From positions 1,328,836 to 1,392,835 of the forward strand of contig CAJINV010000007.1 in assembly GCA_905178155.1 (NCBI GenBank): DNA of 64,000 nt. Reading direction: 5' to 3'. Below are positions 1 through 63,272 of the stretch, piece after piece; the stretch's first letter is position 1; every line of letters starts with the position of its first letter. The notes beneath the pieces are model-generated. The model had not been told where the DNA came from. It saw only the letters and a list, made by a program, of their open reading frames with translations, and did not search any database. The stretch comes from Amoebophrya sp. A120. Its lineage: Eukaryota > Protista > Dinoflagellata. Both the position numbers and the translations under genes were made by a program.

Positions 1-1545
1 GACGATGTATCACATGTAAAAATGTCTGGGTCTGGAAGGTTGGAACTTGTGATGCTAACTTTGGATGCTAAAAAAAACTGTATTGCATGACCAGCAAGAG
101 GAGCCCAGTTTGTGCTACGCGGGGAGGGCATTTGTCATGCGGGATAGGCATCAGGAAGGCCTCTAAAAATATGTGATGCTAGATCATGCATTACAGACAT
201 CTTGACTCATGCAAAATATGCATGACAAACCTTGTAAACTTCCAGACCCAGACATTTTTACATTTGATACGATGCGGCCACCGCCTACATGAAAAAATTC
301 GGCTGGAAGGAGGGCAGCGGGTTGGGGAGGGAGCAACAAGGTATGAGAAAAATGAACGGTTGCTTTTTCTTTTTGATAATGCTGGCTACACAATCAAAAC
401 CTATGAAGTCGTCTCTAGCTTGACGACGGCGAAACTGTTCTTCGCGTCGTGTCTCTTTGAGGTGTGATGTCGCAGGTCACGCACGGGGAGGGAGGATCTT
501 CTTCTTCTACCCAGCACAATTCTATCTCCTCTAGTACAACACATGAGGAGAAGAAACCATGATCATGATCCCGCCAGGTATTACTGCCCCGCTGATTATG
601 CGGAAGACAGATCGCGGCGCGGGGACGGTCGTGCAGGGTACGACGATGCCGGCCCGGAAATTCGATCCGAAAGTCGGCCCAAGCACCGTGGTTGTGCTCA
701 TGAACGCAGTCGGACGCGGGGAGGTTATCGTGGAGAAAAATGCAGCTCGATTTACTGCTGCGAGAGGTGGGGATATACTTGTCATGCTGTTTCAAGATCT
801 GATGACAGGTCAGTTGACGGATAATACGAAGCTGCTAATAGTTATACATGATTTTTCAAAGATGCATGGCAAGTGCAGAAAGCGCGGCCTCTGCGCATCA
901 GAACGCTGTGCATATGGCTGAGCTTTCTGTACAGATCAGTACATCTAACAGAGTAAGCATCACACATGATTTCTATGCTTGCACGACCACGAGCCGACCA
1001 GCAGGAATACGCGAGACAAATTTTTCTCTTCTCGATACCCATCGACGAAGATCTGCAGGAGGAGATGACGGAGGAAGCAGGTACAGAAATGATAATGCGT
1101 TCTTGCAAATATGTCTGGGTCTGGTTTTGTGGCATGAGCAGTAGTCTGTATTGCATGAAGCGAATTGATGACGAGTCTTTTTGTCGCGCTGGGAGGCAGT
1201 TTCTCGTTCGATTTACGAGTGAGTCTGCATCTGCACTGACGTCGTAGTTCAAATACTTGTATATGCGTTCATGTTGTCGTACAGAAAAAGGCCTTCTTGT
1301 GTAAAGTTTTGCGAAAAAATTATTCAGGTAAATACGGCAAAGTGGTGTCCTGTGTCATCAAGGAGGCGGCCAAGGACGTGCCCGACAAGGAGTCTGTCCG
1401 GATTTTCCTGGAGTTTGACAGCGTTCAGGGAGGGCAATTTGCCAAGGCGAAGTTTACAAACCGGTATTTCGGCGGCCGCTATGTGAACTGTCTCTTCTAC
1501 GAGCCAACCCTGTACAAAGCCGGACAGTACTTCGAAAAGCTGTGA
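1..1545 (+). CDS. RBM17: Splicing factor 45 (SPF45/RBM17/DRT111-like), G-patch plus C-terminal UHM; 5' partial, multi-exon
   Basis: G-patch MKKFGWKEGSGLGREQQG|GITAPL, then UHM VVVLMNAVGRGEV|DEDLQEEMTEEAG|KYGKVVSCVI...VRIFLEF...RYFGGRYVNCLFY. GT-AG introns 341-577 and 1081-1327; introners 8-269 and 726-1037; stop at 1545. Confidence 0.85.
8..269. mobile_element. Introner, family A (TIR TATCAAATGYAAAAATGTCTGGGTCTGGAA)
   Basis: TIRs at both ends; direct repeat CGATG at 3-7 and 270-274. Confidence 0.9.
726..1037. mobile_element. Introner, degenerate (D-like TIR)
   Basis: TATCGTGGAGAAAAA...TTTTTCTCTTCTCGATA; flanks GAGGT/CCCAT have diverged, but removing the element plus 5 nt restores GEV-DEDL of the UHM. 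Confidence 0.75.
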
Positions 1546-2487
1546 AGTTCATTTTCGAAGGCATATAGCAGCTGGCTGTTCGTCTTGCTGTGTCGGGGGA
1601 GACGAAAGATGTGCTGGCATAGTGCTCTACAACAGCTCGTGACAATAAAGTTATGAACACGCTTGAGCAGGACCAAGCGGCAGCGACAAGAAGTAGCCTT
1701 CCAGATCTTCATGCGACAAAACAGTTATTCATATCCTCCTTCGTGGAGGATTCCTCGAGGAAGAAGTACTTACTTACTACATCAATCCGCCACATCAGAG
1801 TTGTCACTCCGTGGTCGCAGAACTTTGGGGACTGTACTTGGAAGAACGACGACCGCCATGTTCGTTTCTCTGACCACCATCTCGTGAATAAAATCGATCT
1901 GTGTTATATGCCTAGTAAAAATCGCCATCACAACTTACCAAGGTATTATTTCGTCGTGAGTTGCAATTCCGTAATATCTATGTTGTTTCTACCATAATTC
2001 TCGACGTCTGAGACTGAGCGGACCGTGTTCATCAGCTTTCTCGACCCTTTCGTATTTTGTGCAGGAGGAGGACCGACTGTCTTTGTTTGAGTGAACCAAG
2101 GCTTGTTTGTTTGCTTGTTCTGTTGTTCTTCGGCTCGTCGTGTTGCTGCTGTGTCAATTCCACGCGACGTCTTTTGCATTTCGATCGGCAGTAGAACAAG
2201 CCTTAGTATGGCTTGTTTTACATAATTCACAGAACCTGTGTGGTTTGCAATTTGTGTGGGCCGCTTTGTGTCTCATTATGAAAAAATCAATTCATAGGCG
2301 AGGAGGGCTAGAAGGGATTAAAGCACCACACAAGTGGTCAGAGTCAACATCGCATGTGCGTCGACACGTTTGTGCAGCCACTTGACATCTCTGCCCGTTC
2401 AAGAGGGTCTTGCGCGGCGGGGGGTTTTCTACATCGAGAATAAGTAAGTTACGCAGGAGTTTCTGGAGCAAATAAAACTGGCACGAG

Positions 2488-2688
2488 ATGTTCGGGCTCG
2501 CGGACCGGTTTGACAAGCCCGCGGCCTACAGCCCCGGCCCCGGACACTACGAACACCGGAGCGCTTTTGGCACCAAGGGAAGCGACGATCTCACCACGCA
2601 GCTCGTCCAGAAGCTGTACCAACTGCCCAACGATCCGCTGAACCTAACCTCCATCAGCGTCCGGTCGACGAGATGTAATGAAAAATGA
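2488..2688 (+). CDS. Exon with STPG/SHIPPO-type repeat (SPGPGHY); probably 5' part of the gene continuing at 3529
   Basis: GC-rich coding-like ORF MFGLADRFDKPAAYSPGPGHYE; a second similar repeat (TPINIGPGSY) lies at 3529-3573 in frame with the 3574 ORF. Junction not resolved. Confidence 0.5.
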   Translation: MFGLADRFDKPAAYSPGPGHYEHRSAFGTKGSDDLTTQLVQKLYQLPNDPLNLTSISVRSTRCNEK

Positions 2689-3528
2689 GCTTAATATTCA
2701 ACGATAGAGCTGCTCGTGGACACGACTTTCATAGAATTCCAGCTGACCTCAGATCTTGTGCGTTTTTACGACATTGACCCAGAAGAAACAAAGTGCAGTT
2801 CTAGATGTTGGGAGAATCTATCTACTCTTCGGCCTAAATCAGACAGAGACAGCTAGCGGCCACTGATTTACATCAAATTTTTTATACGGAGTAACAAACT
2901 AACACAGCAACACACTTCGACGACTCGCTGGCGGCCAGGGTAGCGCGCTTGGAGACCTCCCTCAATTGCAACAGAACCTCTGCGTGCGCGCCGGGCAGGA
3001 GACGAGGCGGCGGACCTTCCGGGGTAAGATTGATTTTCTGCTGATTGTAGCGTCGTGATTCGTACTCGTGATTCGTTTATAATTGCGTGCATGATAAAAA
3101 GCGACATTCACATTTGTACTTCTGTAGCATGAGCTACCGCATCCTGCATATCACGATTAAACAGGTTCTCGCATCGTCGTCGACGGAATTCCAAAGCGCA
3201 CAGGACGCCGGCTTCCAGCGACATTCCTGGCTTGCGGGAGAGTTGAGCGGCGACGTGTAAGAAATTATTCTGATACGTGCTTATCTCGTCCTCCAATAAA
3301 TAGTTTTTTTTGCCATCTGGAATTGCGATTCTTTTTTAGGATTGTTGCAGATGCTCCTTGCATCTCACACGAAATTTTTATTTGTCGTGCGTCGCATCTT
3401 TGATTTAATTGTTGAAGAGGGCGCACGCGCACGCTTTGTTTCTCATGGGTCAGGAATACTACAGAGAGAAGATAAAACTAAAACCGGAATGAAAACTAAA
3501 CATAAAAAACATCAGCTTTTGCTTTAAG

Positions 3529-6368
3529 TCCACGAACACGCCCATAAACATCGGCCCGGGGAGCTACAGTTCCATGCAATCCACCGCCCCGGAGAAGGTG
3601 ATTCCGAAAAGTCACAACTACCTGGTGCAACGAAGCGAGGAGATCGCGCGGAACCGACGAGATCTGTGGATCCAGAAGCGACTGCACACCGGCGCAGCTC
3701 CGAGTCCGTTCAGCATGATGAATGGGGACAAATCTTTATCGCTCAGCTATACCCAGTTCGGAAACGGCGGTATGTCGGTCCAGCAAGTAGGTGGACCACT
3801 ACAGATGAACCCGCCGATGGTATCAAAATGAAAAATCCCCCCTCCCCATATCAAAACGAAAATTTGTGATGCTGATTTGTGACCACAAATCGGCTTTGTA
3901 TTGCAGAGAGGCACTGCGGCCAGATCCCCAGGCTAGGTAGGGGCGTATGGGTCTAGTAGTTCAGCATGGCAAACGGCCCCCCTTTAGGCCCAGCAGCATG
4001 ACAAATCGCTTCCATAATGGGGCGGAAGCTTCTGCCCTTGTCTTCTTGCAAGACAGATGTGATTTGTGACCTCAAATCCCCAACGCAAATTTTTAGAAGC
4101 ATGCCTTTTCAATATGGGGGGGGGGATTTTTCCTCTCAATAGATGGTGACGAACGTGCCGCAATCGGCGTCAGACCAGCAGCCCGCGGTCTACCCCCCGC
4201 CGATGGGCAGCGGACCGCAGCAGCCACCCATGGTGTACTACTCCGACCCGCCGGCGAACCCCCTGCAGCTTGCAGGCGCATCGAAGAGTAGCCGCACGGT
4301 GGACCTGCATCACGCGCGGGGGGACAACATGCAGCTCCAAGCGGAAAATTATATCAACAAACCGAGCAGCGAACAGCAAGGGGTAGAGCAAGTACAACAG
4401 CAGTTCCAGTCTACTGCTCTCCAGCAGCCACCACCGATGATAAACGGGGTGCAAATTATATCGGGAACGCAGCCCGCGATGTCCAGTTCCTACGTGCCCG
4501 GCGCTGGCCCACCATCTACTTCGGGAGTCTCGCCCGTGGCTGTGCAACAGCACTTGCAGCATCAACAGCACCAGCACCCCGGAGTCACGCAGAGCCACGT
4601 GCCGCGAACGATCAACTACAATGACGATCACGTTTCCCCCCACCAGTCACAGAACTCGCAGTTGCAGGAGGACAAGAATCCGTTTTCAGCTGCGCACCAA
4701 GCCGCGACAGCGGGGTATCACGGCTACGGATCGGTGCCGGAGCCGATGGGCAGCAGCAGTAGTGGTTTTCATGACCACAGTGCTCCGACAAGTCGCAATC
4801 AGCGTCAGCAACTATATGGCCGTACTAACTACGGATTTGTCAAGTAGTCCAAAAAATTTCAGGGTCCGCGCGTGATGGTATCAGAGGAGGCAGCACAGCT
4901 CACGCATAAAGGCCTCCTTGTATTTTTTTGCATCGTCCGATCCTTAAGCTAGCTAGTTAGGAAGGCGGGCCGCTTCCAGTATCCCCGAGGTCCTGGTACA
5001 TAAATTCGTGTCGGAGCGGGGGGCTAGCCCGCAACCCCGAGCACCGGCAACAAGCGGCACAGGCTCCACGCAACGAAAAAGCTTCCGGGAAACGAAGGCC
5101 GTGGCAACCTGGCTGGCAAGACAAGAGCCATTCTTTTAGGACTCGCGACACAGTTCCGACGCACAGTGTCAGGACTCCACGCAAGACGGCTATGCGATCG
5201 TGAGAAAACGGCGCCAGGCCTGACCCCAACAAAAGAAGGGCACTGGCAGCGGCTTCTCCCACAGGCTGGGCGCACTGTTCATGGCCCCCCGCTTGCTTGG
5301 CTCGCCTCGCCTGACACTCACAAACGAAATGCAGGACGACCCGGCTATCGCGCACTTGCATACACCTGCCAAAGCCCCCGCTAAAGATTGCAGGCCACTG
5401 CCTCCGGGGGTGCTTGGGTTGGGTAATTTGCCTGGCGCCCATTGCAGCGGTCCCAATCCTTCAAAAGCGGGGTAGCCGGTGCCCGGCAAAGCTCGGCCCC
5501 CATCAAAGACGTGGCCAAAGCAAAACCTCAGAAACTAAGCAGCCTGCCCCACATCGCGACGGCCCTCGCAAAAAACCCAACGCGGGCGCACCTCCGGGCG
5601 GGCCGGCTAGCGCTAGTGTGGCTGCGCTACTGAAGCGCGGCCCGCCTGGTTCGGCGCCCACTGCTTTATGCAAAAGCAGGTGGGCGCAGCGCAGAAGCAA
5701 AAAACCCGGCAGGTGTGGACTAGGGCGAAAATTGAAGGGGAAGGTGGGGGGCCTGATATTTCCAGCGAAGGGGGGGTGGTGGGTTGAAAAGAGCAGCGGG
5801 AAGACTGGGTCTGCCACGCATCCTCTGTCGAAGGGGCTGCGCGGGACGTGTCGGAAGAACTGCGCAGCACCATCGTGGATGTGACACAGGGCCACAGTTT
5901 CAACGCCTTCTGCCTCGTCGAAGAGTTCGGGGTCTTCACCTACAGCCCCGTCGCACATTGGGAGGGCAAGAAGCTCTGGGAAGCCCCTTGGCTTCTCTTG
6001 GGGGTGCGATTGCCTCCACGCCCAAGAGGTCCTTACGAAAGATTCAAACATGACCCGGGTCCGCAGCTCCAGAAACTGGCGGCCCCAGTAGCAGCCTGCC
6101 TAGTTAACTAGTTCAATGAATCTGCGCACTCACAGCCTCATTAGTGGGCGACGGATTTCGCATAAGCAAAGACAACACGGTGAGGGATACGCGCGGAGAC
6201 CCTGAAATTTTTTGGACCACTTTGAAAATCCGTAGTTAGTATGGCCACAGTGCTCCGACAAGTCGCAATCAGCGTCAGCAACTAGTCCGGGTAGACGCTT
6301 ACGGAAGACCAATATCATCCTCATCCTCTTCCAATCGTAATCTATCCAGCAGGAAAAAAAGTGTGTGA
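3529..6368 (+). CDS. Q/P-rich hypothetical protein with STPG-like repeat, interrupted by an introner and a 1.43-kb TIR element
   Basis: ORFs 3574-3831 and 4143-4847 join (PPM-VTN) after removing 3821-4146. Removing 4815-6284 extends the frame QQL-VRVDAYGRPISSS...KKSV to TGA 6366-6368. Confidence 0.65.
3821..4141. mobile_element. Introner, family B (TIR TATY-N6-AAAAATCCCCCCTCCCCATAT)
   Basis: TIRs; direct repeat GATGG at 3816-3820 and 4142-4146; frame restored. Confidence 0.92.
4815..6247. mobile_element. Non-autonomous TIR element (~55-bp TIR) with 40-bp flanking direct repeat
   Basis: TGGCCGTACTAACTACGGATTT...CCAAAAAATTTCAGGGTCCGCGCGT at 4817-4873 is inverted at ~6189-6247; direct repeat 4775-4814 = 6245-6284; GC-rich interior with no recognisable transposase. 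Confidence 0.8.
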
Positions 6369-6632
6369 GTCTATACCGTCTATAGGCACTAGGAGCATCT
6401 TGACAAATCAGTGCGCCCCCATGACAAAAAAAATTCCAAACTGTTGAGCGCAGCTGGTAGAACGTGCATCAACCCCTTATGAAGAAAGAACAAGGTATAA
6501 AACTTTCCATGATAGTAATCTTCGTTTTGCATGAAGATCATGACATCTGTAGAAACAGTCTTGGTCGCTCTGCATGATAGATAATTGCTTGTACTCACTC
6601 AGTTTTTTCTTGGATGCAAGAACCCTTTTCAG

Positions 6633-7735
6633 ATGCACGACGATCCTCAGTGGATCGGGAGTTTGGTGCAGCAGTACCACCGAGGGGGCAGTGCATCCTC
6701 GGTTGTGCCCGCGCAGCAACTACAGGGCTACAGCTACCACCCGCAGCAGCAACCGCCGGTATTCACATCGCCGACCAGCCGCGCGTTCGATCCGCCGCCC
6801 AGGTTGGTGATGAGTAGTACGGTATCCTATGTAAAAACGTCCCAACATGGGGATTTTGCAACACAAACCTTGAAGTTTTGGGAACCAAGCATGACAAATT
6901 GCAGGCTGTAGTGTAGTGCAGTTTAGCAAGGGAAGCCGCATAACAAATCGATCTCCTTATGCTGTTTACAGCATTACAAGTTCCAAAACGCGATTGATTT
7001 TGCCGATCATGGGATCGCGCATTACAAACGCTCTTGTGCTCGCAGATCTGCATTACAACTCTGGGGTGGGGACGTTTTTACTCAGGATATACGGCCGCAG
7101 CGCCCTCCGCGCAGCCGCAGAGTAGACCGACGTCGGCCTTGCAGCAGTTACGCATCAGGCAGCAGTATCAAATGCAAAAATGTCTGGGTCTGGAAGAATG
7201 CAACTTGTGATGCTGCATTTGGACTCCAAAAAAATCTGTATTGCATGAGTAGCAAAGGGAATGCAATTTTTGCTACGCTGAGAAGGCATTTCTCATGCGG
7301 AATAGGCATCAAAAAGCCCTCAAAAAATCTGTATCGCTAGGGTATGCATCACAGACATGGTGGCTCATGCAAAACGTGCATGACAAGTGTCAGAATCTTC
7401 CAGACCCAGACATTTTTACAGTTGATAAGCAGCAGATGCAACAGCTCGGCCCGGCTGCAGGATCATCTTACGTCGGCGGCACCGTGCACAGAGGTAAATA
7501 CAATTGATGTCATTTTATTCGTTTGATGAAAAATCAAAATGCTTGTCGTGCTTTCGCTTACTACTTTGAATTGAAGAACCTACTTCGGCGGCACGATGAT
7601 TTGATCAGCTACAATTCCGGGGGTTTTATTCGTTTTGCTCTTGACTTTCTTGCCCATTTCTGCTATCAAGGTGCGTCGGTTCCGAATCCGCAAATGCAAG
7701 CGTACGGGCAACCACAGATGCAAGTCGCGAGATAG
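6633..7735 (+). CDS. Q-rich low-complexity hypothetical protein (possibly 3' exons of the preceding gene)
   Basis: Frame continuous after removing introners 6823-7089 and 7166-7427 and GT-AG intron 7494-7670. ATG 6633 is preceded by TTTTCAG, so it may be a splice acceptor. Confidence 0.65.
6823..7089. mobile_element. Introner, family C (TIR TATCCTGAGTAAAAACGT)
   Basis: TIRs; direct repeat TACGG on both sides; frame restored. Confidence 0.92.
7166..7427. mobile_element. Introner, family A
   Basis: TIRs; direct repeat AGCAG on both sides; frame restored. Confidence 0.92.
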
Positions 7736-9346
7736 CGCTTGGTAGTCTGAGAACGGGAGGGATCAACAAACCCAGAAATTGCTCGGAAAGTTTCATGATC
7801 TGGAACGTCGTTGAACGTCTGTCTTTCTTCAATTTCAATCAATTACAAGCCAATACTTCATTTTCAATCAATTACAAGCCAGTTTTTATCTAATGACTTC
7901 AGGGTTTGATATCGCTAAGAACTTACTAGGAACTGCAGGCGCACGGTCGGAGTGAAGACACGTTGTGCCTGCTCAGTTCTTGTCCTGCGGCTCTCCAGGG
8001 TCGCAAAACAAAATTGAACTTTTCTCGCTTTTCCATGCCACTGCGTGTGACATCAGGACTGGGTGATGTAGTTTTCATGCAATTGCTCTCGTGGTTGTGG
8101 TTCCACTTCTTTGCAGCTAGGAGTAATCCAAGTAGAACTCCCGAGATCTTCAAATTCGAAAGCCTCGAAGGGATGAAAAATACGTATTGAGGACACGTAA
8201 ATCCAACGTAGTGGTAGTCGTTCTGTAACTCCCGGGCATTATTAGAGCACCACGTGAGCAAGAGCAGGCTCCCGCCAAATAGTAGACTTGAAACTTCGTC
8301 CGATTTCTCTACCGCTGTGACCACGTGGTCATCTGGTCCTGTAGGTCTATCCGCGCATGGCAGCACAGTGCGTTTTTACACGCCGAAAAATTAAAGCAGC
8401 GGAAGAAGGATTTTTATCGGAAGTAGAGGAGGCTTCGATTTCAATTCCATCGCTGTGTTATCAATTATCGACATTTTTCTCTTGTATCTATCCCTTTGTT
8501 TGGATTGGAGCCGAGGAAAAGACTCTATGAACCAAAAAATGCACGAAGCAGCTCAGGTATTTTGTGAGCTGTGGAACGAAAATCAATGGTGAAAATGTGG
8601 AAAAATAAAGTCATCAGCCTCTAGTATGACGTCGCTGTTGTATTTGTTGTGAAATACTGTTTGAACTTATCAATTGTATGATAACGGGAAACTTTTTTCG
8701 GCATTATCGCAAACTACAGCGAGTTTGTTAATAATCCTGTTCCGCAACAGGCGAAGAGAGTCCTCTTGGTGTTCTGGCTTCAGGCGTTTGAATCGCAAAA
8801 ATAATGGCAATCGGTCAAGGTAGTTCATCTCCGCATAGTCGGTCGTTCGGTCGTGTGCAATTATAAAACTTCTTCGGATGCTTCTATGTGCAAACTGGCT
8901 GCAAAAATGCAGGTTCGGTCGAAACAATGTAGATTTCGTGCAAGTTAGTAGAAGAGCTGCAACACATTCCTTCGGTTCGTACAGGATGAATATCAACTCG
9001 CGTTTGTCGTTCTTTTCGTCCAGATTTATGCTCCGCGGAGCAGCAGTAGCTTCGTGCAGGCAATAGAATACAGTTGTGTGATGCATCAGGTTTGGTACTA
9101 TAATCTGCTTCTCGTCGCATGGTAAAGTATAGGTAAAAATTTCTACAACCAGGATTTTGTTGTATTACTTGAAACCCAATAATGCCCCCTGCTTGATCTT
9201 GTGGTCCCACATTATGTGATCCCGCAGTTGTCAGCAATCCATTATCTCTTTTGTCCCACCCGTGTTTATTGTGTGTCACCCACCTCATTGTTTCGCTACT
9301 TCATTTCGAATTGATATTGACCATAAAAAAAAGTACAACGCCCACC

Positions 9347-12300
9347 ATGGCTATACTAGCTTCACAGAACGTTCTCCGCACCTCCGGCCGCTCCTCCCGG
9401 CGGCAGAAGAAGGGGATATCCGTGATGACGGCGGTTTTTGGGTCGGTTGTCTTTCTCCTCCTCGACACACAACTCTTCCCTTACTTGTTCGGCGACCAGC
9501 ACGTCCCCCTGACGGCAGATTTTTATATCAAAAAAAATAACTCTCGTCGGGAACAAAAGATGCGAACCATTTATTTGAACGAGAATTCAGTTACGAATCC
9601 TATACCGCAGACGGGGGAGCTGCTGGTCGAAGAGCACCACACGGCAAGAACCAGTACATCGCCCGGAAGTAGCTCTACAACAGCGGCAGATGTTAAAAAT
9701 GATGTCAAAGAGCAGGTGTTGGGAGCACAGCAGGAGTACAACGATGATATTAACGCCAATTCTGGCGCTCCGTCCTTGTTCAACATCGCGTCTTCATTCG
9801 GTAAAAATGGTAAAAATGCTGCTATCACTCTGGAGGAAGAGGAGCTCGAGGTTTCCGGGAACGTGTACGTGTTAGAGATCGCCGTGGTCATCATTCTCTC
9901 GCTGCTCTTCGAGTACTGCGAGGACATGCTCCGCGAGAACCTGGCGAGGAAGGAAAAGGAAGTGGCGCTGGATATTTTGGACTCCTGTTTCGGAGAATTG
10001 ACCGTGCTGGGCTTCATCGGTATTGAAGGTTTTCGCACGACCAAAAACTAGAAGAGGCTCCTTAAAATCATGTTGTATATCGACCTGTAAGGTGAAATAT
10101 CTCAAAAATATTGTGGTTTTTGCAAACGCAAGCTCCGCGTGGATGACCACGTCGTCGAGATTGATGTGAACGTGAAATACTACTCGCTTTTCAAAACTGT
10201 CAATGTCATATACGTACTATCATCCCAGGTCTCGCCGTGTTTATTTCCACGAAAACGGGGGCTGCGACGAGATTAGCGGAGCGGCTAGTGCCCGGCTACG
10301 ACGGCGAGGGGGAAAACCCACTGTCCGAGTCCTTTGAGAATGTGCACATGTGCATCTTCTGCGTGATGATGGTATTCATGTTCCAGGCGGCCACGTTGAT
10401 GTACATCGCGGAAGACTTGGACCGGGTGTGGGACCGATGGGAGTCCATGTCGCCCAAGGGCCGGTCGAATTCTATCGAGGCGGTGCTGAAACGCGCGGGG
10501 TACGTGGACCGCGACGGGAACCGGGTGCAGTCGTTTAGCCCGGGCACTTTCCGCGAACGCATGTGGCACCAGAAAAGCCACAAAATGGTATAGATGCTTG
10601 GAATTTGCACTTCGTATGAACCCATGAGTTTAATATTACGCTGTGATGTACTTGTACTACTAGTCGTGTATGTGCAGTCGTGAAGTAGATTTGATGAAGA
10701 TGCCTTTGACAAGAACACCGTAGATACCAATTTGTTTCATCTACCACGACAATTTCTTCACGACAGATGGTTTTGTGGCACGGGCTCCGGCATTTGTTTT
10801 GCTATCCGGTGGCGATCGACGAGGACGAAAATCATTTGTCCGACATTGTGGAGGTCAAGGACCCGGCCTCCTTCGATTTCCGGATGTATTTGTCCAGCAA
10901 GATGGGCCAGCTTTTGACGGATCTCGTGGAGGTCGACAACCGCACGTGGCTCTTCGCGCTGGTGGTCGTGGTGCCGTTTGTGTCCGTCGCGACCACGGTC
11001 TCCCCGGTCGTCATTATGGTGATGCAAACCGTCATGGGGCTGATCTTCTCCTGTACGATGAATTATATGATTGTTGTTTATAATGAAAAGTAAAAACTTG
11101 TGTGCGGCCACTCGATTGGTGGGGGGGATGGGCGGGTTTACGTTTAATAGAGGAACTATCTATTGCACAAAATCAAAATGAACTTGTTGCGTCGGAACCG
11201 GAAGTTGTTGGTTTTTTTGGATTGCGGCTGCTCAGTCTTTTCTACTAGTGGTACTCAATGAAAAGCATGATGAAGATGTACTTCATGTACGTTGGCTTCG
11301 ATTTTTAATCCAAAACCAAAACAGGTATTTTCGCGTGGCTGCTTTCCGACCTAACGCGTGTGGAGTACAACCTGTGCCCGCAGCTGGGCGCGGACGCGCC
11401 GGAGTGGCTGGAGTACATGGCGGAGAAGGAGTTCAACACGATGAACAACGCAGACAAGATATCCTGAGTAAAAACGTCCCCACGACCCCAGAGTTGTCAA
11501 GATGGGGACTTCGCAACACAAACCTAGAAGTTCAGAGAGTCACGCATGACAAGTCGCACTGCTTAGTGTAGTAGTGTCAAGCGGCAATCTGCGGCCATGG
11601 TGCAATGGGGGGGAAAAGTGTGTCGCATTTTGTTTAGCATGACCAGTCCGGTCGTGTGGGGACGCTTTTACTCAGGATACAAGAAGGGTCGCAAAATCGT
11701 CGCGATGGGCGTCACCCGCGAGTCCCAGGCGCCGGGGGCAGAGCACATGGCGAAGGGGGGACTGCTGAACGGGGACGGCATGAGCGCCGAGTTGCGGGAG
11801 CGGTTGCTTTTCAAAGAGTCCACCACGCTTGCGAGCCTGATGGCGCCGGTGCACTTCCGGATCCTGGAGCGGCGGTCCGAGCTGGAAAAGAAGCAGATGG
11901 AGAGCAGCAGCAAGGACGAGTACTTGGAGAAGGTCGCGGAAGAGATGGGGGAGAACAAGCGTCCGCTGCACGTCCGGCTGCTCGGCGGCAAGGAGGACTA
12001 CATTCCGCACGAGCACTATCCAAGAAAAAAACTGTGTTATTGTAACTTTCTTTGGCTGGTGACAGCATCGCAAATTTAGATTTTCTCTACGTGACAGAGA
12101 AAACCTGTCATGCGTGGCCCTTCTTGTAAGAGAAAACACACATGAAGAGAAGACTTCATGGCTGTCTGGCATGACAGGCGTAACTCTGTTGCATGTTCTG
12201 CATTTTTACAGAGTTCCACTCACAGAGTTTTTTTCTTGCATAAGCACGACCGGCTGTTCCACTTCCACGAGTTCGGGGTCGGGGTGTGCAACCAGATCAT

Positions 12301-15300
12301 GCGTACCATGATGTTCATGGAGGCAATCCTCGTCGCGTCGCTACTGGTGGTCCTGGTCGTCTTCCCCAAAGGCCCGGTCGGGTGGGGCTTGTTCATCTTC
12401 TCCATGCTCCAGTGGCCGTTTCAGTTGTTGGTGTTGCTACCGAAGATCATCACGAAGTTATCGCGAGGAAAATTGCCCCCTCCCCCAAGGTTGCAAAAAG
12501 TTGTGATGCGAAGTTTCCAAATGAAAAACTTTGCATGAAAGGAGTATGGATCTTTCTGATGCAGAGGCTAGGCGTGTTGCGCATCGCTTGCATGACAAAC
12601 GCCGCTCTTGCTGGGATCTTTTGCAATACAAATTTCCGCTATTCACGATCGAAAATCAGCACGCTGATTGATGCAAGAGGGCGAGTGTTTCACTTGGAAA
12701 GGTTTGCAATACAAATGCTTTCAAGTTCGGGGGTCGGGGCATTTTTCATTGTAATAGAAGTACTGCATCGTGTCCTCCATCGAGTGCTACAAGGACCACG
12801 AGCTGATCAACAAGGTCACGTTATCCGTGAAGGAGCGCCGCCTCCGGGAGGCGGTGTCCCTGATGCAGATGGTGAAGCTGCGCGGCCGCATCGAGCGGCT
12901 GGGCGGGCACCGGTTGTCCAAGCAGAAATTCGACGAGCTGTCCGAGAAATTCGACCACTTTTCCGAGGACAAGCTATTACAGTGCACAACTCCCCCTCGT
13001 TCTCATTTCTCATGCAAAACACCAACTCCACGCTTTCCCTCCTGTCACTATTATTTTTGGTAGCCCAAATCGCACTATGCCCCAGTGCAATTTGACATGA
13101 TGATACGTTTGCTGCCTTATGCTGTGCTCCTTTTCTTTGGCGCTAGCAAGGCAATAAGATTTCATTCTCATGTCTGATCGGCAAGATACTCTTCATCTTT
13201 TTAAATATTTTTAAGTGCTAAAACATGATATTTGTTGGGTGCCTCGCTTTCTTCTGCGCCTTTTTCCGCTGGGGCTCGCTTTCTTCTGCGCCTTTTTCCG
13301 CTGGGGCTCGCTTTCCCGCTGGGGCTCGCTAAAACATGATATTTCCGTCTTCGGGTGCCTCGCTTTCTTCTGCGCCTTTTTCCGCTGGGGCTCATCTTTG
13401 CATGACATCGGAGAATATCTCAATATAGAAACAGGGCTAGTAGAAATAAGTAAAAGTAAAAATTTTATTGGTTTACGTAACCGGGGGGCGGCTTGATGTC
13501 TGCGGCGGATGATGACAGTGTGCACACTCCTACAAGTATATGGCTGCCGGGCTGCTTCCCGGTCGGTCTAGTACAAATAAACATTTCGCCACTGATCCGC
13601 TAAACACCTTGCTGCCAGCCCCGCCCGCTCGGGGGTTAATTATCTCTAGACAGGGCACCAGCTGCGGTTGTCCTTTAGGGCGTTCGAGTCTAGATAAAAA
13701 ACTACCATGCGTAAATCTTCAATTTTGCATGGGCTCTTGGTGGCTGCTTCCACCGCGGGAGAGTATAAAAACGCAAAACATAAGTCATTGACCACTGGGT
13801 CGCTGTGACGCCGTGCCTGCACGCACCATCAGAAGTGCGACGAGGTGCCAATCGTGTTGATGCACGCACCATCAGAAGTGCGTTGATGCGCGAGGGTCGT
13901 GAATGAATGAATGAATTTGTAAGCTTATCGGCCGTTGTGCCATCGGGACTTCCTGCCCGCTGACCACCAATGTCATGCAAAACCGGCATTCGGGCTGATC
14001 CTGATGCTTGTATTGCTGTTCATGCTATACAAATGAGGGGGAGGGGGAGTTGTGCACTGTTATACAAGCAGCGCCACATCGAGAAGGCCTTCGTCCACAT
14101 GGATTTCGACCACTCCGGGCAGATCGGGGTCGAGGAGCTGGAGAAGTTGATGTCCTCGATGAACATTCTAGCCAATTCCGACGTGCACAAAAACGCGAAG
14201 CAGCTGGTGCACATGGTCGACATGGACAAGGACGGCATGGTCGATTTGACCGAGTTCAAGGTCCTGATGGCCCTCGCGTACGAGAAGCAGGACCCGATGG
14301 AGGAAATCCAGGACTTCGACAAATTTTTCGACCTCATCGACGTGGACATGGACGAGGCGCTCGCGTTCCAGGAACTCGCGCAGTTCTGCCGCGACAACTT
14401 CGCCATCCCGATGAACAACGCCGACATCGGGGAGCTGGTGTACCGCTGCTTCCGCACGGTGAAGGCGGAGTTGACCCGGGACGATTTTATCGTTTGGATG
14501 CGGTGGCTGCAGGACTGCGAGAAGGGGCAGATGAGCGAGGACGCGATGCGGGTGGATCGCGGGTTCGGTTTACTGTGAGGAAAAATCCCCCCTCCCCATA
14601 TTCAAAAGGTAGGTTTCTAAAAATTTGCGATGCGGGTTTGCGACCACAAATCCTGTCTCTGTTGCAAGAAGGCAAATTGAAAGAACCCGCCGCCTTATGG
14701 AGGCGATTTGTAGTGCTGTTTCACCTACATGGCAGGCCTCTGTCATGCTGAGCGCCTACAGCAAAACACCTCTACGCAGGCTGGGGCTTTGCCTCTAGTG
14801 CTTCACTGCAAGACAGGGCTGATTTCTGTACACAAATCCAGCAACAGAAGTTTCCGTTTCAATATGGGGAGGGGGGATTTTTCACTTTGATACGGTTCCG
14901 GCTCCGATCTGGACACGCCGGACGAAAACGTGGACCAGTCCGCCAAGGGGTTCGACCACGGCATCCAAGCGCCACTGCACGGCCACCACAAGAGCAGCGA
15001 CTTCGACGCGGACGGCGTGCGCACCTCGAAGCACCGCGACGACCCGCGCGAAGCGTCGACGGACGAAGATATCCTGGAGGAAGATGCTGACGAAACGCAA
15101 AGGCGAAGAACAAGTAACTCCTTCTTCTGGCGCAGCAGCGATGCGCCTGTGGTGGGAACAGGCGAGAACGCGCCCGCGTCGAAATCGCACCGGAAGTCAA
15201 CGAGGTTGAACAAGCGGGAAAGTGTGGGTAATGGCGCGGCGGTGAACATCAATGATGCTGTCGTTGTTCCAGTGGCGCGAGGGGGCGCAAGTCAACAAAC

Positions 15301-15802
15301 TCCTTCATCTACTGGAAAGAAGCGTCAGTCCCAGCACCGTTCCAGTGGCTTTTACTCGATCGATAACAAGCCGGTGTACATGACAAATGAGTCTAATCAG
15401 ATGGTCTCCATGCTGACGCAGAATTCCGTGGAACCGGTCCGGCTGGAAATGAGCACAGCACCTGCAACAAATAATGCTGACAGCACGACGATGTTGAAAA
15501 ACTCGTCAAAGACTGTGCCTTTACTTGCGAATCAGCAACAGACTGTAGTTGTGGACGAGCAGGAGGCCACTTGTGCGAACAACAAACCGCCGAAGAGGCG
15601 AGAGAGCACCAGTCGGCGGTTGAGCACGAAAGCGAATACCGCGAACTCGCCTGCTATGCTGGCGCGCGGGGACACTCAGCAAGGCTTGCCGGTACCGCCT
15701 TCTTGGCAGAGGGAACAGGAGATGCAGGCGGAAAAAAAGGCGCGCTTGTTGCTGATGGGAAAGTCGGAAGTCCCGGGGAACCTGGAAGGCGAGTTTGTGT
15801 GA
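9347..15802 (+). CDS. MLO-family membrane protein fused to EF-hand domain, with long disordered C-terminal tail
   Basis: MLO-like motifs ILSLLFE...GELTVLGFIG, VHMCIFCVMMVF, HDRLFHF...MFMEA; EF-hands DFDHSGQIGVEEL and DMDKDGMVDLTEF. GT-AG introns 10020-10228, 10588-10766, 11053-11324, plus 5 introners. Confidence 0.75.
11460..11679. mobile_element. Introner, family C
   Basis: TIRs; direct repeat CAAGA; DK-KGRK restored. Confidence 0.92.
12017..12242. mobile_element. Introner, family D (TIR TATSCAAGAAAAAAACT)
   Basis: TIRs; direct repeat AGCAC; PHEH-DRLF restored. Confidence 0.9.
12459..12756. mobile_element. Introner, B-related
   Basis: TATCGCGAGGAAAATTGCCCC...GGGGCATTTTTCATTGTAATA; direct repeat GAAGT; TK-YCIV restored. 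Confidence 0.88.
12975..14064. mobile_element. Long introner, family I (TIR TATWACAGTGCACAACTCCCCCTC), 1090 bp
   Basis: 24-bp near-perfect TIR; direct repeat CAAGC; EDK-QRHIEKAF restored. Confidence 0.9.
13215..13395. repeat. Short tandem array inside long introner
   Basis: Three copies of CTCGCTTTCTTCTGCGCCTTTTTCCGCTGGGG plus a truncated one; GCTAAAACATGATATTT occurs twice. Confidence 0.85.
14571..14892. mobile_element. Introner, family B (inverted relative to 3821 copy)
   Basis: TIRs (left end TAC variant); direct repeat CGGTT; GFG-SGSD restored; similar to 31020-31319. Confidence 0.92.
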
Positions 15803-16559
15803 TTTTTCGGATCATCGATTGGTGCTGCTGTCCTCTTAGGTGCGAGAAGATGCCCGTAGCTGCACCATGCTAGAAGTAGCATTCCCTTTGTGTATAGATT
15901 CATTGTTCCACCCCAAATGTTGGTATGTACCGCTATGAAGAACTACCCAAAGAAATCTTTCAATATTGGTGTACTATTTTAGCCGTAACCAAAGCCATAC
16001 ATAGATAAATCCAATTATGTCCTACTTACTACCCACGTTGTTGTCACACGTAAATGATTCATTTCAACAAGAATTCTAGTCACGTTTCGGTTTCTGTATC
16101 GAAGAAATTAATACACAGATTTCTTCCATATTAGGAACAAACGGCTTATAATTTCTTTTGCAATGACCCCGGACGTACGAGTGACCCCCAATCGCTGTAG
16201 AAGCTGCACTGGACCACTGCGATGTGAGTGGGAAGGTGATCCGAATCGATGCTGTGCTAGAGGCTCGTGTCGCAGCAACATCAAGTTTCGCACTCACAGA
16301 AGAAGCTGATTGAACACTTATCAATATGGTCGGAGTACTAGATCCAACAAAAGTACTAGAACATGCTTCCCGCTGAACCTGGATGGTTGCTGTTGCAAAT
16401 GCTAACAGTAACTACAGTAACTTTCAATACGCATACGGTGGTCCGCCGGTCTCGGTTGTCAAAAAAAAAATTTGCAGTTATAATATTTGCTTGCTAGTTG
16501 TGGTCCATTGATCTTCTGGTAACCAAATGCGTCCGCGCGCGGCTCCCCAATTGCCGAAA

Positions 16560-17085
16560 CAAATCCGATCGGTTCTTCAATATCGGTGTACTTAATCAGC
16601 CTGGTGAGAAGGTGAAACGTGAAATGAGGATCTTAGCTCTATTCGCCCGATGTGCAGTTCTTCAGTTTAATCAAGGATCCCCAGGAGCATCAAAGTTGTG
16701 CTTTCCAGTATAAAACAAGGAAGATATCGGTAAGCGTAAAAAACTTCTTCACGCGACGACCTCATGCAAGGATCCTCGGAAACGGAAATGAATTCGATCA
16801 CCGATAGATCTGCACGAGTAAACGCAAAGTGTTTATCACCGGTCGGCCAAGCATCAAGGCACATCGATATAGAACAAGCAGCATTCATCTCCATCAGGAA
16901 CGAGTGGCAGCATTGATTTGGAAATCAGGTTCTTAATCCTTAAGTTTTAGAAGAAATAATCCTTCCTACTAGCCTTACATTTGTACTGCTGGGCCTCGTG
17001 TCTTGCTGTATTAGGAGCGAATCAGTTCGAACACAAAGAGTATTCTTACAAATTTTCTGGCCTGGTACGCTCGACCGAACTCAGG
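16560..17085 (+). repeat. Diverged ~0.5-kb direct repeat, copy 1
   Basis: Shared blocks with 21011-21570, e.g. GAGAAGGTGAAACGTGAA.TGAGGATCTTAGCTCTATTC, CAAGGATCCTCGGAAA, ATTCATCTCCATCAGGAACGA. Confidence 0.8.
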
Positions 17086-17193
17086 TATCAAAAAAAGCAA
17101 GACTTGCTTCCGCCAGCGGAAAATCATACCAACTCAAGCTCTGAAGTCATTGGCAATTTTTATATCTGCGCCTGCAGTGGAAGCGAAGTCGAA

Positions 17194-18048: not shown

Positions 18049-18511
18049 TGAGGTCACCGAACGGTTCTAACCAGGGAGTTTCTTTGCCACCTCCCGTGAA
18101 AAACGACCGGCAGTTTTGAAGCCTGTAGAGAGTTTTTTTGCATGAAAAAGATTCCAGCGTGCAAGCCTGTTTGGCTTTGTCGGCACCGAATCGCAAGCGG
18201 ATTCTATCGGTCGCCGCTTGAAAAAACGACGCAGGGGAGCCGGCAAAAGGGGCGCCCTTCGGAGGCGCCCACCGCCTTGGTTTCTGGCGATTTGGGGCGC
18301 CCAAAAGGGCGCCCGAAAAAAACGCGCCCAAAATCAGAACAGCGAAACAGCATGACACGGCCGCGATTTCGGAGCATTTTGGGCGGCCGCGAAAGCGGCC
18401 GCCTTTTCGCCGGTTTCAGAGCCTGGGAAGCTTTGCAAAAAGCGCGGGCGAGAAAAATAAAAACGCAAAAAAGAAAAAGCGCGCCAGACGCGCAAAGCCA
18501 ACCCGCATGCT

Positions 18512-44713: not shown

Positions 44714-47358
44714 ATGGAGGCACAAAAAAAGGAAAGCGTCGCGAGTAGCGGCAGCGGCGGCAGCAGCATCGCCGAGAAGCTACGCAACAACATTCAACGG
44801 TTCGACTTCATCACGGACACCGTGGACGTGAGGGCACTGCCGACGAGTGACGTGCACCTGCGCGTAGTGCTGAACTCGGTGATGCCGGCGCTCGCGCTCG
44901 GGCTCGTGCTGTCCGGCGCCGGAAGCTGCACGTGGTTCATCCACCTCGGGCTCGAGACTTGCGGACGGGTCCAGCAGGGTTCTCCGTCGGCGCCGGAAGG
45001 GGACATTGGTGCCCCCGGACCAGGTCCGGGCGCGGTGGACTGGCAAGTCCGCTTGGACTGCACATCTACCTTGCTGTTTGGCATACCGATGAGCGCAGTG
45101 AAGGCCTACAATTTGCTGACGACGACGTTCATGGTTCTGGGCATGTTCTCGGCTTGCCTGTTCGCGGGCGGCCTGAGTGACAGCCGTGGGCGGCGCGAAA
45201 CCATGCTGGACTTCGGCGTGTTCGGTGTTTTCGCCCACCTCTTCACGGCCTGCAGCTTCAACTGGCCAATGTTCTTCCTCGGCCGATTTGCGCAGGGGTT
45301 CGCGGTGGTAGGCGCGGCCGGGGTGGCGCCAACCTACATCGCGGAAGTGGTTCCGGCGGAGGAACGCGGGAAGTACGGCACCTGGTTTCAGATGATGGTG
45401 GTGATTGGCATTCTCGTGTCCACGCTTCTCGCTCTCGTGTTTACCTCGCCACAGGAGGAGTGGACAAATTTGAAAGCCGCCGGACCACTGGACTTCGTTG
45501 CCAAGAACGACGATGGTGCAGTTGATCCAACTGCCGCGTCGTCCTCATCTCTCTTGCAGTTTTACTTTGGGGGCAGTGCCACTTTTGCCGACAACGCTGG
45601 TGTCCCGCAAGCCAATGTTGGAACAACTACAGCGAGCACTACGTGCGTGGGCCGCGGCTCCACCACCATCACGCCGGGGTGCCTCGACCCGTCCTCAAGT
45701 TTTGCGCAGAAGAACGGTGGACCACAAAGCCAGCACTTACCGCTGTCTCTCGATGATATCGCGCGTTCCTACTACTTTCAAGCGCACGTGTGGTGGCGGT
45801 TCATTGTTGGGCTTCCGGCGGTGCCGATGATGTATGCCGTGCACCAATGGATGATCAATTTGCGGGCGTTGGAGAGTCCGAAATGGCTGGAGAGCAAGAA
45901 ACGATTCGACGAGGCGGAAGCAGCCTACGAACTCCTGATGCCGACGTATGGCCAGGCCAGCATCGCAGGCTTGATCAAAGACGAAACGGCCGCCATTGTG
46001 GATAATTCCATTCTCCGCAAGTCGGACCGCGTCTCTGAGGAGTCGGATCATTCTTTCGCGGCGCGCTTGTTCGATCCCCTAAACTTGCGTCAGCATGGAG
46101 AAAGCGTTGTGGGGATCTTGTTCGACCCGCTGGATATGCATCCAGATGGGGTTTCTAGCGCTTTGAGGAAGGATGTGGAACATGACGGCGCGGTGGAGCA
46201 AGAACAAGCCGAGCAGCACGGCATCATGTGGGCCTTGCAGAATCGTCGATTCAGGAAGGGGGTGCTGATCGGCTGCGGTCTGGCCTTGACGCAGCAATTG
46301 ACGGGCATCAATTTGATGATCACGTCCGCGAAATCGGTGTTCGAACGGTTTGGCAGCGACAAGGCGAGCTACTTTGCCACGGGTCTGATGTTGTGGAATG
46401 TGCTGCTGACGCTGCCGGCCTTTTGGCTGATGGACTCGTGGGGTCGCCGGTCCCTCCTGCTGCTGAGCGCGGTGCTGACCAGCGTCACGATGACCCTCAA
46501 CGCGGGCATGGAGTCCTACGGCCACTTCTTTCCCTACGGTCCGCAGCGGCCTTTAAGCCCCATGTGCGAATACGTGGTGGTAGCCATGGTGTTCGTGTAC
46601 CTGGCCGGATTTGCGCTGGGCTGGGGGCCGGTGCTGTGGGTGTACCTCGGCGAACTCTTCCCGCAGACGATCGCTGCCGGCTGCTCTTTCGGCGCGCTGC
46701 AGATCAACATGGGGATTCAGATCCCGTTGCTGTTTGTGCTGGGACTCTACATGGACGAGCCGTTCGTTCTGTACATCAGTTTTTCCGTCCTCAACCTGCT
46801 TTCCCTCGCTTTCGTGTACTTTTTCATCGTGGAAACGAAGGGAGTGGACGTCGAACGCAGTCCGCTGTACATATCAAATGCAAACATGTCTGGGTCTGGT
46901 TCTGGAAAGGTTATTAAACCTGTATTGCATTTTTTCGCATTCCTGAAAAATCTGTATTGCATAAGCAGCAAATCAAGCGCCACACTTTCGTCATGCAAAA
47001 ACGCATTTTGTAATGCGTTCTGCGCATGAGAAAGCGTTTGAAACATTTGTCATGCTGCACTGCACTTACAGGCACAGTCAATCATGACCATTTTTCAGCG
47101 TTACAAGTTTCCAGACCCAGACATATTTGCAATCCATAGTACATGTTGGGCGACGATGAAGAGGATGCGGATCATCGTTCGACCCTGGCGACGAACGCAA
47201 GCGGCGAGCAGGAGAAACAGTTTTTGTTTTACGGCTCCACGTCCAGCACTTTTTCTCCGTTTCCGCACCAGAAAAGCCTCGTTGGACCGGACAACCAACG
47301 CCCAGCGGTGAATGTTCACACGGAAAATAGTGATGTGCTGGAGGAGGGCGTCTATTAA
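44714..47358 (+). CDS. MFS sugar porter (hexose transporter-like)
   Basis: SDSRGRR, GRFAQG, YIAEVVPAEERG, ESPKWL, QQLTGIN, DSWGRR, GWGPVLW...GELFP, VETKG. One introner near the C-terminus. Confidence 0.92.
46872..47138. mobile_element. Introner, family A
   Basis: TIRs; direct repeat GTACA; SPLY-MLGDD restored. Confidence 0.93.
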
Positions 47359-60668: not shown

Positions 60669-63272
60669 ATGCTACCCATCCGTTTCTCCACATTCCTCCT
60701 CCTCATCTGGTATGTCGCGTTTCTTCTCTTTGCCGTGTACTACAATTTCACCGTGTCTTGCGTGATCGGGGGCACTTGTTACCAGCGGCACGTCCAGATT
60801 CCCTACCCCGAAGGAACCTTTTCCGGACACCGCGACATCCGCTTCATTCTTGCGGATGTCGCCTGCCAGGAGTCATGCTCAAAAATCTTCGCACAATTGC
60901 ACGGCGTCAACGCAACCAGAACTACAGAAGTACAAGCGTCTATGGGGAGTTTGCCTTCGCCAGCGGGATCATATGAGAACTTCACCGGAGATAAAAAATT
61001 TGTAGCACGACGAGAAGCCAACGGAACCATATCAAGAAACGTCACGAAAAATGCCACGAACTGGAGCGCGGATTTCAACCTGTACGTCCCCAAAGACTAC
61101 GTCATATGCATTGCAAATATGTGTCCTGGGTCTGGAATTTTGACCCGCGAATTCTTGCAAAGACAAAACTATATTGCATGTCTCCAGACCCAGACATGTT
61201 TGCGCTGGATACGTCGAGGCGGTGAACGACAAGATCCCCGCCTACCGCGATAAGTTCGCCGTGAATGACATGGGAGTGTCAGGATTGAAATCGTCAAAGT
61301 TGAAATGATTTGTCATGCATACAATGCAAGGTGGCGTGCGCGTGCCTGTCTTGCCGGGATGGCGAGTGAGGCGGATTGTGAGCCTATTTAGGGTTTGGCA
61401 TAGAGATGCTAAAGGGGCACGACAAAAGCAGTCTTCTGCGCCCAAACAGCATGGCAAACTGGATTTAGACGGTTGCGAAATTTGTCATGCACCGCTTGAA
61501 AATTGGGCTTCCAACTGGTATCGATTTCATGCATTACAAGTTATTTCAACTTTGTCAATTTCAATTCTGACGCTTCCATAAATGAAACGGATCTGCAAGA
61601 AGTACGGGACGGGATTGTGGAAGTCCTCCACGACTCCATTCCGGAACGATGGGAGATAGAACGCTTTAACACCATGGTTCCCTCGTTGCGTTTTAGATTT
61701 GGCATCACCATCGCGAAGAAGTGGGCTGGGGAGAATCTTCTTCTACTTCGTGACGAGCAGGGGGAACAAACAGCACTAGAAGAAAAGGAAAAGGTCAAGC
61801 GCGTGTTGCAGAACCTGATACCGAAGCTCCCGGACGAGGATTGGCTCGCAGGCCGGGAGGCGGAAAAGAAGAGCACTCTCCCGTCCATGTTGCAGGTGGA
61901 CGAGGCGATTTCTGCCGGGGCGGTCAAGCCGCTCTGGGAGGTTTCGATGCGGAAACTGGAGGAACACAAATCTGCGGAGGTTCTTGCGAACGTCCTCGGT
62001 ATGATCCAGACTGCGGGAACAAAAGTAGCTGCGCTCACAAGCTCGTTCTTCGAACAAAACAAAGCAGTTTTTCGAAAAGCACACCGATCCCTACAAGCCG
62101 CAGCACGAACTTTGACGCTGAATTTGTATGATCACCAGTCCCACACTTCCTGCAACCGGAACTGCCAGCAAGTTATCGCCTTGCAAAACTCGATGGAGCG
62201 GATTCCGGAGCAGATGTTTGTCTTAAAGTACTACGGCAGGTGGGCGTTCCTCCCGGTCTTCGGCCTGCACGAGTTCTTTTCCGTTTTGTTTTCCCTTGGA
62301 AACATGATTCCGCATCTCCTGTTCTTTCTCTGGTCCATTGGGCTTTGCGGGACAAAGAAGCGGAAAAAAAGTGAACGAGAAATTACAACGCCAAAAACGA
62401 CCTCCAGGGCTTTGGACAATGGGAGATCATCTACTACTACTTCGGTAACTCCGAATGAGAACAGCGTTGCGAACATCAAGAACAGTGTTCTTGATAAAAA
62501 TACAACTCTTGCTCCTGAAGGTGAAAATAGTTCTCCTGCATCTTCTACTGATCCTTCTGATATAATTCCTTCCTTCCCGGGCCACTCCGTGTTCCAATTT
62601 TACCAGCAATTGTGGCACTTTTTCGGCGTGAACCTCTTCCTGCAGTCGGCGCTGTTCCACGCGTACGAATCGAAAGTGACCCTTTTCCTAGACGTTTTCT
62701 CCGTGCAGCTGACGTTCGTAGTGTCGCTCTTCATGGCGCGGCGGCTGCACTTAATCGGTTTTCAGGTCGAGAAGAGGACTGGGAAGCAAGGTTCTGACCC
62801 GGAAAGAGAACAAGGTGCTGTAGAGGACCCGTCGACGGTGAAACGCGAATGCCTCTGCTTCCTTCTCCCGGCCCTTTTTCTGACGTTGTCCTTCAACCTG
62901 TACAACGCGATTGTGCTGGACAACGCGATCAGCCCGGTCGCGGTCGGGATGCTGATTGGAGGTGTGGGCACGACGCTGTTCTTCGCCTTACCCCTCTTCC
63001 ACAACTGCTACAAGAACATTTTGCTCGACGAAGCGGCTTTTCTCGTGGTCATGATCGGGCCGTTCCCGATGGCGTTCGCCTTCGAGGTGTTGGACTTCCC
63101 GCCGAGCGAATTTTTCTACTTGCTGGACGCGCATGCCATGTGGCACTTGGCGACCATCCCGATGCAGATCTGGTGGTGGAGGGTGTTTGTGCATTTGGAG
63201 AAGTGCTTGGTCACCCATGCGAGTGAAGAAACCTCGAAAGATGCGGTGGGTATCAGAAAGAAGAACGAGTAG
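60669..63272 (+). CDS. PGAP3: Per1/PGAP3-family GPI-remodelling protein with long luminal insertion
   Basis: KYYGRWAFLPVFGLHEFFSVLFSLGN, SALFHAYE, FEVLDFPP..LLDAHAMWHLATIP; C-terminal KKxx-like RKKNE; two introners. Confidence 0.85.
61105..61211. mobile_element. Minimal family A introner, 107 bp
   Basis: Both TIRs with short interior; direct repeat CGTCA/CGTCG; frame restored. Confidence 0.88.
61269..61580. mobile_element. Introner, family F (left end CAT variant)
   Basis: Similar to 23837-24153; direct repeat AATGA; VN-ETDLQ restored. Confidence 0.92.

Follow-up and report, generated by a model that had tools for sequence, protein, structure and literature searches.

The stretch of DNA described here is a window of 64,000 nucleotides from the dinoflagellate Amoebophrya sp. 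A120 (contig CAJINV010000007.1, positions 1,328,836 to 1,392,835), in which all the genes that could be traced, encoding SPF45, a calpain, a sugar transporter, a methyltransferase and a Per1-like protein, lie on the plus strand, as do all the introns and introners given below. The window holds 36 introner elements of 107-1344 nt that run from TAT to ATA, with inverted repeats at their termini and 5-nt direct repeats on either side. The first three letters are TAT in 34 of the 36 elements and TAC and CAT in the remaining two. The direct repeats are perfect in 22 of the 36 and mismatched in 14, a rate that is biased, as the catalogue was built from scans that partly used repeat identity and the ends were placed by eye. 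The elements have the features of miniature inverted-repeat transposable elements, i.e., a terminal inverted repeat, a target-site duplication of fixed length, no coding capacity and high copy number, as well as those of A120 introners, namely a terminal inverted repeat starting with TAT and followed after about 7 letters by at least three A, a direct repeat of 3-5 nt across the exon/intron borders and an organization in families. By all the sequence features examined they are members of the A120 introner type already described, and a search of Rfam gave no match. Farhat et al. 2021 (PMC7789003) count 29,850 such introns in the A120 genome, report no cognate transposase and give both the position at which these introns are spliced and the mechanism as unknown. 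The initial annotation of the window predicted from mismatches between repeat copies that the cut falls between repeat positions 4 and 5, and our analysis supports this register, with RNA from one gene, protein homology in another and the composition of 177 elements.

The RNA data are contigs of four runs of one sample that span one gene, at 28794-36262; the runs were taken as RNA by guess, yet their contigs skip four GT-AG introns. All 11 catalogued elements in 29000-36100 are skipped in these contigs, with non-canonical ends, and at all nine joins that remove a single element the skipped length is that of the element plus 5. Four of these joins involve perfect repeats: 30262-30582 (GGCGA; intron 30261..30586 when cut between positions 4 and 5, as for all intron coordinates below; joint 30256>30583), 31020-31319 (TTTTC; intron 31019..31323; joint 31014>31320), 31835-32097 (GGATG; intron 31834..32101; joint 31829>32098) and 35265-35579 (ACCAA; intron 35264..35583; joint 35259>35580). 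One double join (29559>30016, one letter between) removes two further elements, 29560-29736 and 29749-30016 (29559..30020), around a micro-exon at 29741-29747, 7 nt long in the proposed register, which is kept in the RNA contig; as their repeats are identical, this join is uninformative on register. The spliced gene is free of stops over 1242 codons.

A hairpin together with a direct repeat is the classic layout for template-switch artefacts. With runs only guessed to be RNA, the joins could be ascribed to reverse transcriptase switching templates across repeat-flanked hairpins, or to excision at the DNA level, instead of splicing. We regard this as very improbable, since the main contig is of the joined form, in which the frame of 1242 codons is restored along with four GT-AG introns, since at the element starting at 29165 only 2 of the 5 repeat letters match and no stem is predicted, and since contigs assembled from short DNA reads run through the elements unbroken. 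The DNA contigs agree with the window, with 0 other letters, over both repeat copies of the elements at 29165, 33384, 33664, 35658, 37669, 38200, 41233, 41622 and 42317, an agreement to be read knowing that the short-read DNA run may itself be the source of the assembly. In the same run the depth over the elements far exceeds that of their flanks, as repeat families would give.

The register can be read where the two copies of the repeat differ. If k denotes how many letters of the repeat the left copy contributes, the cut between positions 4 and 5 is k = 4. Five joins in the gene have mismatched repeats, each of them present in 4/4 runs. The join of the element at 30683-30964 (intron 30682..30968; TCGAA/TCGGA; ends AT...GG; joint 30681>30969, one letter common to both sides) allows k = 4 or 5, and those of 35658-35969 (intron 35657..35973; GAGGT/ATAGA; ends TT...AG; joint 35655>35973, one common letter) and 29165-29439 (intron 29164..29443; right end ACA; TTTGG/GTCGC; ends GT...CG; joint 29162>29443, one common letter) allow k = 3 or 4. 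The elements at 33384-33614 (intron 33383..33618; GGGTT/TGGTT; joint 33379>33616, four common letters) and 33664-33928 (intron 33663..33932; CCCAG/TCCAG; joint 33659>33930, four common letters), at both of which position 1 comes from the left copy, allow k = 1-5. Position 4 derives from the left copy at 30683, position 5 derives from the right copy at 35658 and 29165, and k = 4 is the sole register common to all five mismatched duplications. RNA reached 30683 and 33664, two of the nine sites at which the initial annotation had proposed to read the spliced bases, and both are compatible with the predicted cut; the left-copy protein readings that it had preferred there, GFEKE and SASQ, are those found in the RNA. 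Were k chosen freely for each element, the probability that k = 4 fits all five would be 0.026, which is the relevant value, small as the sample is, as k = 4 had been predicted beforehand.

It is also conceivable that the register differs between elements, the cut falling in each at the one of six positions that looks most like a splice site, with k = 4 merely as the commonest outcome. Every element tested by RNA allows at least two values of k, a GT donor is available at k = 3 in 35658, and the legend of Fig. 3 of Farhat et al. (PMC7789003) describes the position as variable and Fig. S23 places the inverted repeats 1-5 nt from the splice sites, while class 12 of Polarella glacialis is described as using more than one position in its 5-nt duplication. 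The published spread is, however, what aligner ambiguity in perfect repeats would produce, the GT at k = 3 in the element at 726 is disfavored by the conservation of a valine, and the enrichment of AG described below is confined to one register. A register that varies in this way is in our judgment improbable.

The element at 29165 shows that position may take precedence over sequence. An in-frame GT...CAG option at 29164-29440, whose end resembles the acceptors of the host, is passed over, and the assembled RNA is cut three bases further, giving GT...CG; in the main isoform of this element, at least, position prevails over a perfect AG, rare forms being dropped from contigs. At 35658 an unspliced contig (35627-36002) is present in 4/4 runs, at a depth of 5.5-12.3 compared to 38-64, contig depth being a poor measure. 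The four GT-AG introns seen in RNA have ACAG as acceptor in 4/4 and GTAC, GTAT, GTAC and GTGC as donors, three of the four starting with GTA. The GT-AG intron 32870..33033 (joint 32869>33034, no letter common to both sides) reads exactly G+TAT...ATA+ACAG and so has introner geometry with no inverted repeat; it shows no terminal pairing and has one weak 27-nt match to element loci (E=0.006). It is a candidate for a decayed introner turned canonical, or else a coincidence, and it was excluded from the main register count. De novo models of GT-AG genes recovered exactly 1/4 of the introns seen in RNA and were rejected as unreliable, for which reason no donor consensus is claimed from them.

Independent evidence for the register comes from protein homology at the element 726-1037 (intron 725..1041; GAGGT/CCCAT; ends TT...CA), which falls in the UHM motif of the SPF45 gene, a gene with G-patch and UHM domains. 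The residue at the junction is V in 152 of 162 homologous SPF45 domains and I in 2. A V at this junction requires k of at least 4, whereas k = 3, despite offering a genuine GT donor, yields I. As V is conserved in SPF45 homologues, k of at least 4 is favored at 726 on homology, in agreement with the reading GEVDED of the initial annotation. The gene that hosts this element and the one at 8 (268-1545) is itself that of a splicing factor, SPF45. For the gene at 37-43 kb one homologue was found, whose alignment begins downstream of the junctions at 37669 and 38200. A test of removal length by open reading frames was set aside, as it gave no discrimination (33, 35 and 33 of 36).

A further sample is one record of a metagenome collection, in which a pattern scan found the same element families at high density (at least 156 loci, all in one assembly). 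Element ends were paired there by the inverted repeat alone, without using the direct repeat, which gave 140 elements among the loci listed. A perfect 5-nt repeat flanks 115 of the 140, a rate obtained blind to the repeat, while one letter outside it the two sides match in only 32/134 and 30/134. As the letters beyond 5 nt match at chance level, the direct repeat is a 5-bp target-site duplication. The best of the listed loci are 90-94% identical to window copies over at least 200 nt. In addition, raw RNA reads that lack this locus carry the same element ends, matching 31835-31868 and 30262-30302 of the window, indicating that the same families occur in that material too.

If the cut is at k = 4, the last two letters of the intron are positions 3-4 of the right copy. 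The orientation of each element was assigned with a codon model applied to its flanks, the repeat being masked; of 172 oriented in this way, 141 with a margin >2 were kept, which together with the 36 elements of the window make 177. Dropped before the counts were 6/140 first-pass pairings (at least 3 mismatches or a nested pairing) and 2/40 extra elements, and the background for the dinucleotide test was taken from phase-matched flanks. AG at positions 3-4 occurs 24 times versus 12.9 expected (p=0.0033), and in the second assembly alone 18 times versus 9.7 (p=0.011). At the other positions AG is at background, with observed/expected counts of 12/11.3 at 1-2, 8/10.3 at 2-3 and 10/11.3 at 4-5, and so is the antisense mirror CT (11/9.2), while CAG at 2-4 is raised (8/3.2). 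At the 5' end, G at intron +1 shows no enrichment (51 vs 55.5 expected), and T occupies +2 in 111/112 oriented 5' arms. The T at +2 that the initial annotation had taken as kept is therefore nearly general without being absolute, as the element at 61269 starts with CAT. T is likewise the letter at +2 in each of the nine predominant A120 sites of Table S4 of Farhat et al. (PMC7789003).

The initial annotation had further suggested a drift toward a 3' AG. Its observation of right-copy AG at positions 3-4, at 35970 and 39544, is exact, and AG is indeed enriched there, yet the excess is already present in perfect repeats (17 vs 8.3 expected) and thus most likely reflects which insertions are kept. 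No net mutational drift toward AG was found among the mismatched pairs: in their intronic copy, gains and losses came to 3 and 2 for AG, to 3 and 5 for G at -1, and to 3 and 4 for G at +1. The repeat AAAGG at 29749 had been read as a GT-AG intron in exactly this register; it is the only element of the window (1/36) with GT-AG in any register, and solely between positions 4 and 5, but about 1.2/36 would be expected by chance, so that alone it is no evidence. Two other treatments of the composition data were abandoned. An expectation for AG based on the margins (24 vs 20.8) absorbs the excess of A and of G and hides the signal, and was replaced by the phase-matched one, and polarising mismatches by mutation bias starts from a false premise, as C>T/G>A and T>C/A>G run at 0.031 and 0.032 per site (p=0.09-1.0).

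Taking these data together, we consider it quite probable that the register is fixed at N+TAT...ATA+NNNN, i.e., that the cuts fall 1 nt upstream and 4 nt downstream of the element. Several observations weigh against this reading and what it implies. The RNA evidence is that of one gene and one sample, in contigs that drop minor forms, and no bona fide element by itself fixes a single k; a mix of k = 3 at 35658, with its GT donor, and k = 5 at 30683 is also compatible with the RNA. The probability that some common k would arise by chance is 0.136. The sole direct test of position 4 rests on base 30968, the pair at 30683 lying outside the DNA pieces compared, so that an assembly error at this base is conceivable. 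AG at positions 3-4, a cell specified beforehand, ranks first among the 64, but fails a 64-fold correction, is not significant in the window alone (6 vs 3.2, p=0.13) and ends only 24/177 introns. The agreement of Table S4 with k = 4 may reflect aligner preference in the published mapping, the arms are equally conserved at both ends with no asymmetry found between 5' and 3' arms, and the element at 61269 departs from T at +2. Finally, as regards a ruler based on a stem, the predicted terminal pairing is near 0 at 29165 and 35658, both of which are still spliced.

Which machinery makes the cuts is a separate question. GT-AG ends at k = 4 are found in 8/177, so that the elements fall outside the ordinary U2-type GT/GC...AG definition, and, as reported by Farhat et al. 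2021 (PMC7789003), 83/89 spliceosomal proteins were found in A120 and U1 was not. One may therefore imagine, at the same fixed register, a structure-guided nuclease and a ligase in place of the spliceosome, as proposed for the nonconventional introns of euglenids. Pairing between TAT and ATA ends is predicted for most elements, the letters at +1 and -1 show no significant covariation (chi2 p=0.12), the GT...CAG pair at 29165 is bypassed, U1 was not found, and in Euglena the spacers are likewise of fixed length, namely 3 and 5-6 nt. The preference for AG and CAG at precisely the 3' cut is, however, spliceosomal and favors the spliceosome over a structure-guided nuclease, and the two elements without predicted terminal pairing splice nevertheless. 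Moreover, 15% of canonical A120 introns share the layout of inverted and direct repeats according to Farhat et al. (PMC7789003), which along with the GT-AG intron 32870..33033 of the same geometry suggests a continuum. Removal by a nuclease and ligase thus seems unlikely, and, given a fixed register, the spliceosome is in our view the probable cutter. For the combined reading, that the introns are removed with one copy of the duplication, likely in a fixed register and likely by a relaxed spliceosome measuring from the element ends, we claim a reasonable likelihood, lower than for the register by itself.

A spliceosome of this kind might operate as follows. The inverted repeat would supply TAT at +2 to +4, resembling the GTAY donors of the host, in either orientation of the element, and would likewise supply a U-rich stretch and the ATA ending at -5, four bases before the 3' cut. 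Lacking a recognisable U1, the spliceosome would place both cuts by distance from the element ends and would not read GT and AG, so that the letters at +1 and at -4 to -1 would come from the target site and be mostly free, and a residual liking for (C)AG would act as a filter on which insertions survive. A scan for branch-point motifs gave no positional peak. In its strictest form, a U1-free spliceosome with the transposon end as its ruler, which cuts 1 nt upstream of TAT and 4 nt downstream of ATA irrespective of the flanking letters and even past a perfect GT...CAG, the model is tentative and we give it somewhat less than an even chance. If true, any insertion, in either orientation, would be a ready-made intron.

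The remaining elements of the window are as follows. Besides the pairs at 726, 30683, 33664 and 35658, the coordinates and repeat pairs listed in the initial annotation for 37669 and 38200 proved correct: in the element 37669-37927 (intron 37668..37931) the pair CATCA/CACCA differs at position 3, and in 38200-39543 (intron 38199..39547), a long element with internal repeats, GCACC/GCAGC differs at position 4 and the right copy has AG at 3-4. Mismatches at position 5 are found in 23490-23768 (intron 23489..23772) of the calpain gene, in 41233-41558 (intron 41232..41562) and in the short element 61105-61211 (intron 61104..61215) of the Per1-like gene. The repeats of 41622-41900 (intron 41621..41904) differ at position 1, those of 42317-42677 (intron 42316..42681) at positions 1, 3 and 4, and those of 42813-43099 (intron 42812..43103) at position 4. 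Excising 61105-61211 together with 61269-61580 (intron 61268..61584), the element whose 5' end is CAT, leaves a stop-free frame at 60669-63272. Further elements with perfect repeats, lying within 8..47138 and uninformative on register, start at 8, 3821, 6823, 7166, 11460, 12017, 12459, 12975, 14571, 23237, 23837, 26526, 26857, 40299 and 46872. Two long members of one end type (TAT...GTGCACAAC), 12975-14064 (1090 nt) and 38200-39543 (1344 nt), contain internal repeated or nested sequence.

Other features of the window were also noted. An insertion of another kind, about 1.4 kb long, lies at 4775-6284. Its ends form inverted repeats of 56 nt (4817-4872 and 6192-6247), and the direct repeat on its two sides, exact over 40 nt (starting at 4775 and at 6245), is far longer than the 5-bp duplications. 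The intergenic stretches 16545-16900 and 21000-21360 are similar by eye and may represent a dispersed repeat, and an open frame of 344 codons at 18461-19495, which has no Pfam match, adjoins a GC-rich repeat-like stretch. The GC-rich intergenic regions 50600-51660 and 63550-64000 contain inverted and tandem repeats and are possibly other mobile elements.

The elements themselves were already known, whereas for the rule of a fixed offset no published statement turned up in the literature searched; Fig. 3 and Figs. S19-S23 of Farhat et al., bioRxiv supplements or subscription papers may show it. With the A120 introners as described in PMC7789003 our elements share an inverted repeat starting with TAT plus a stretch of A, short border repeats, a length of about 250-300 nt, the presence of many families and non-canonical ends; compared to that description, the duplication is here 5 nt, one register fits, and AG is biased at that register. 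The nonconventional introns of Euglena follow, according to Nomura et al. 2025 (PMC12501133), the code 5'-N3CDG-/-CH'GN5-6|R-3', and so likewise have fixed spacers outside complementary terminal motifs, with a 5' spacer shorter than the 3' one. Unlike in Euglena, the spacers here measure 1 and 4 nt instead of 3 and 5-6 and consist of target-site letters, the motif is TAT/ATA and the lineage is unrelated; the ends are N-TAT and ATA-N4, which differ from the euglenid N3-CDG...CHG-N5-6 signature. Class 12 of the introner-like elements of P. glacialis (Roy et al., bioRxiv 10.1101/2020.10.14.339549) shares the 5-nt duplication, and its NNAGG form has its 3' AG at duplication positions 3-4 and a 5' site made of the last duplication letter and the first letter of the element, a geometry equal to k = 4. 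There, however, the G and the AG have to come from the duplication and the register is not unique, whereas here GT-AG is found in 8/177 and most insertions splice without it. In Fritillaria borealis (PMC13326754 and PMC11282704), transposon-derived introns that are not GT-AG are removed by a modified spliceosome, but these have defined ends (AG-AC and AG-AT), U1 is retained and U2AF is duplicated, whereas in our case there is hardly any constraint on the letters at +1 and -1, and U1 is reported as not found.

A fixed register would reduce the seemingly chaotic end dinucleotides to one rule (NT...NN), which would allow correct annotation, and would tell where to seek branch points and the factor that replaces U1. 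It would settle the splice position published as unknown, and it is directly testable on public reads over thousands of elements. A second, independent splice code based on spacer length would then stand beside that of Euglena, and the introners of Amoebophrya would show a transposon making introns almost independently of its target site.

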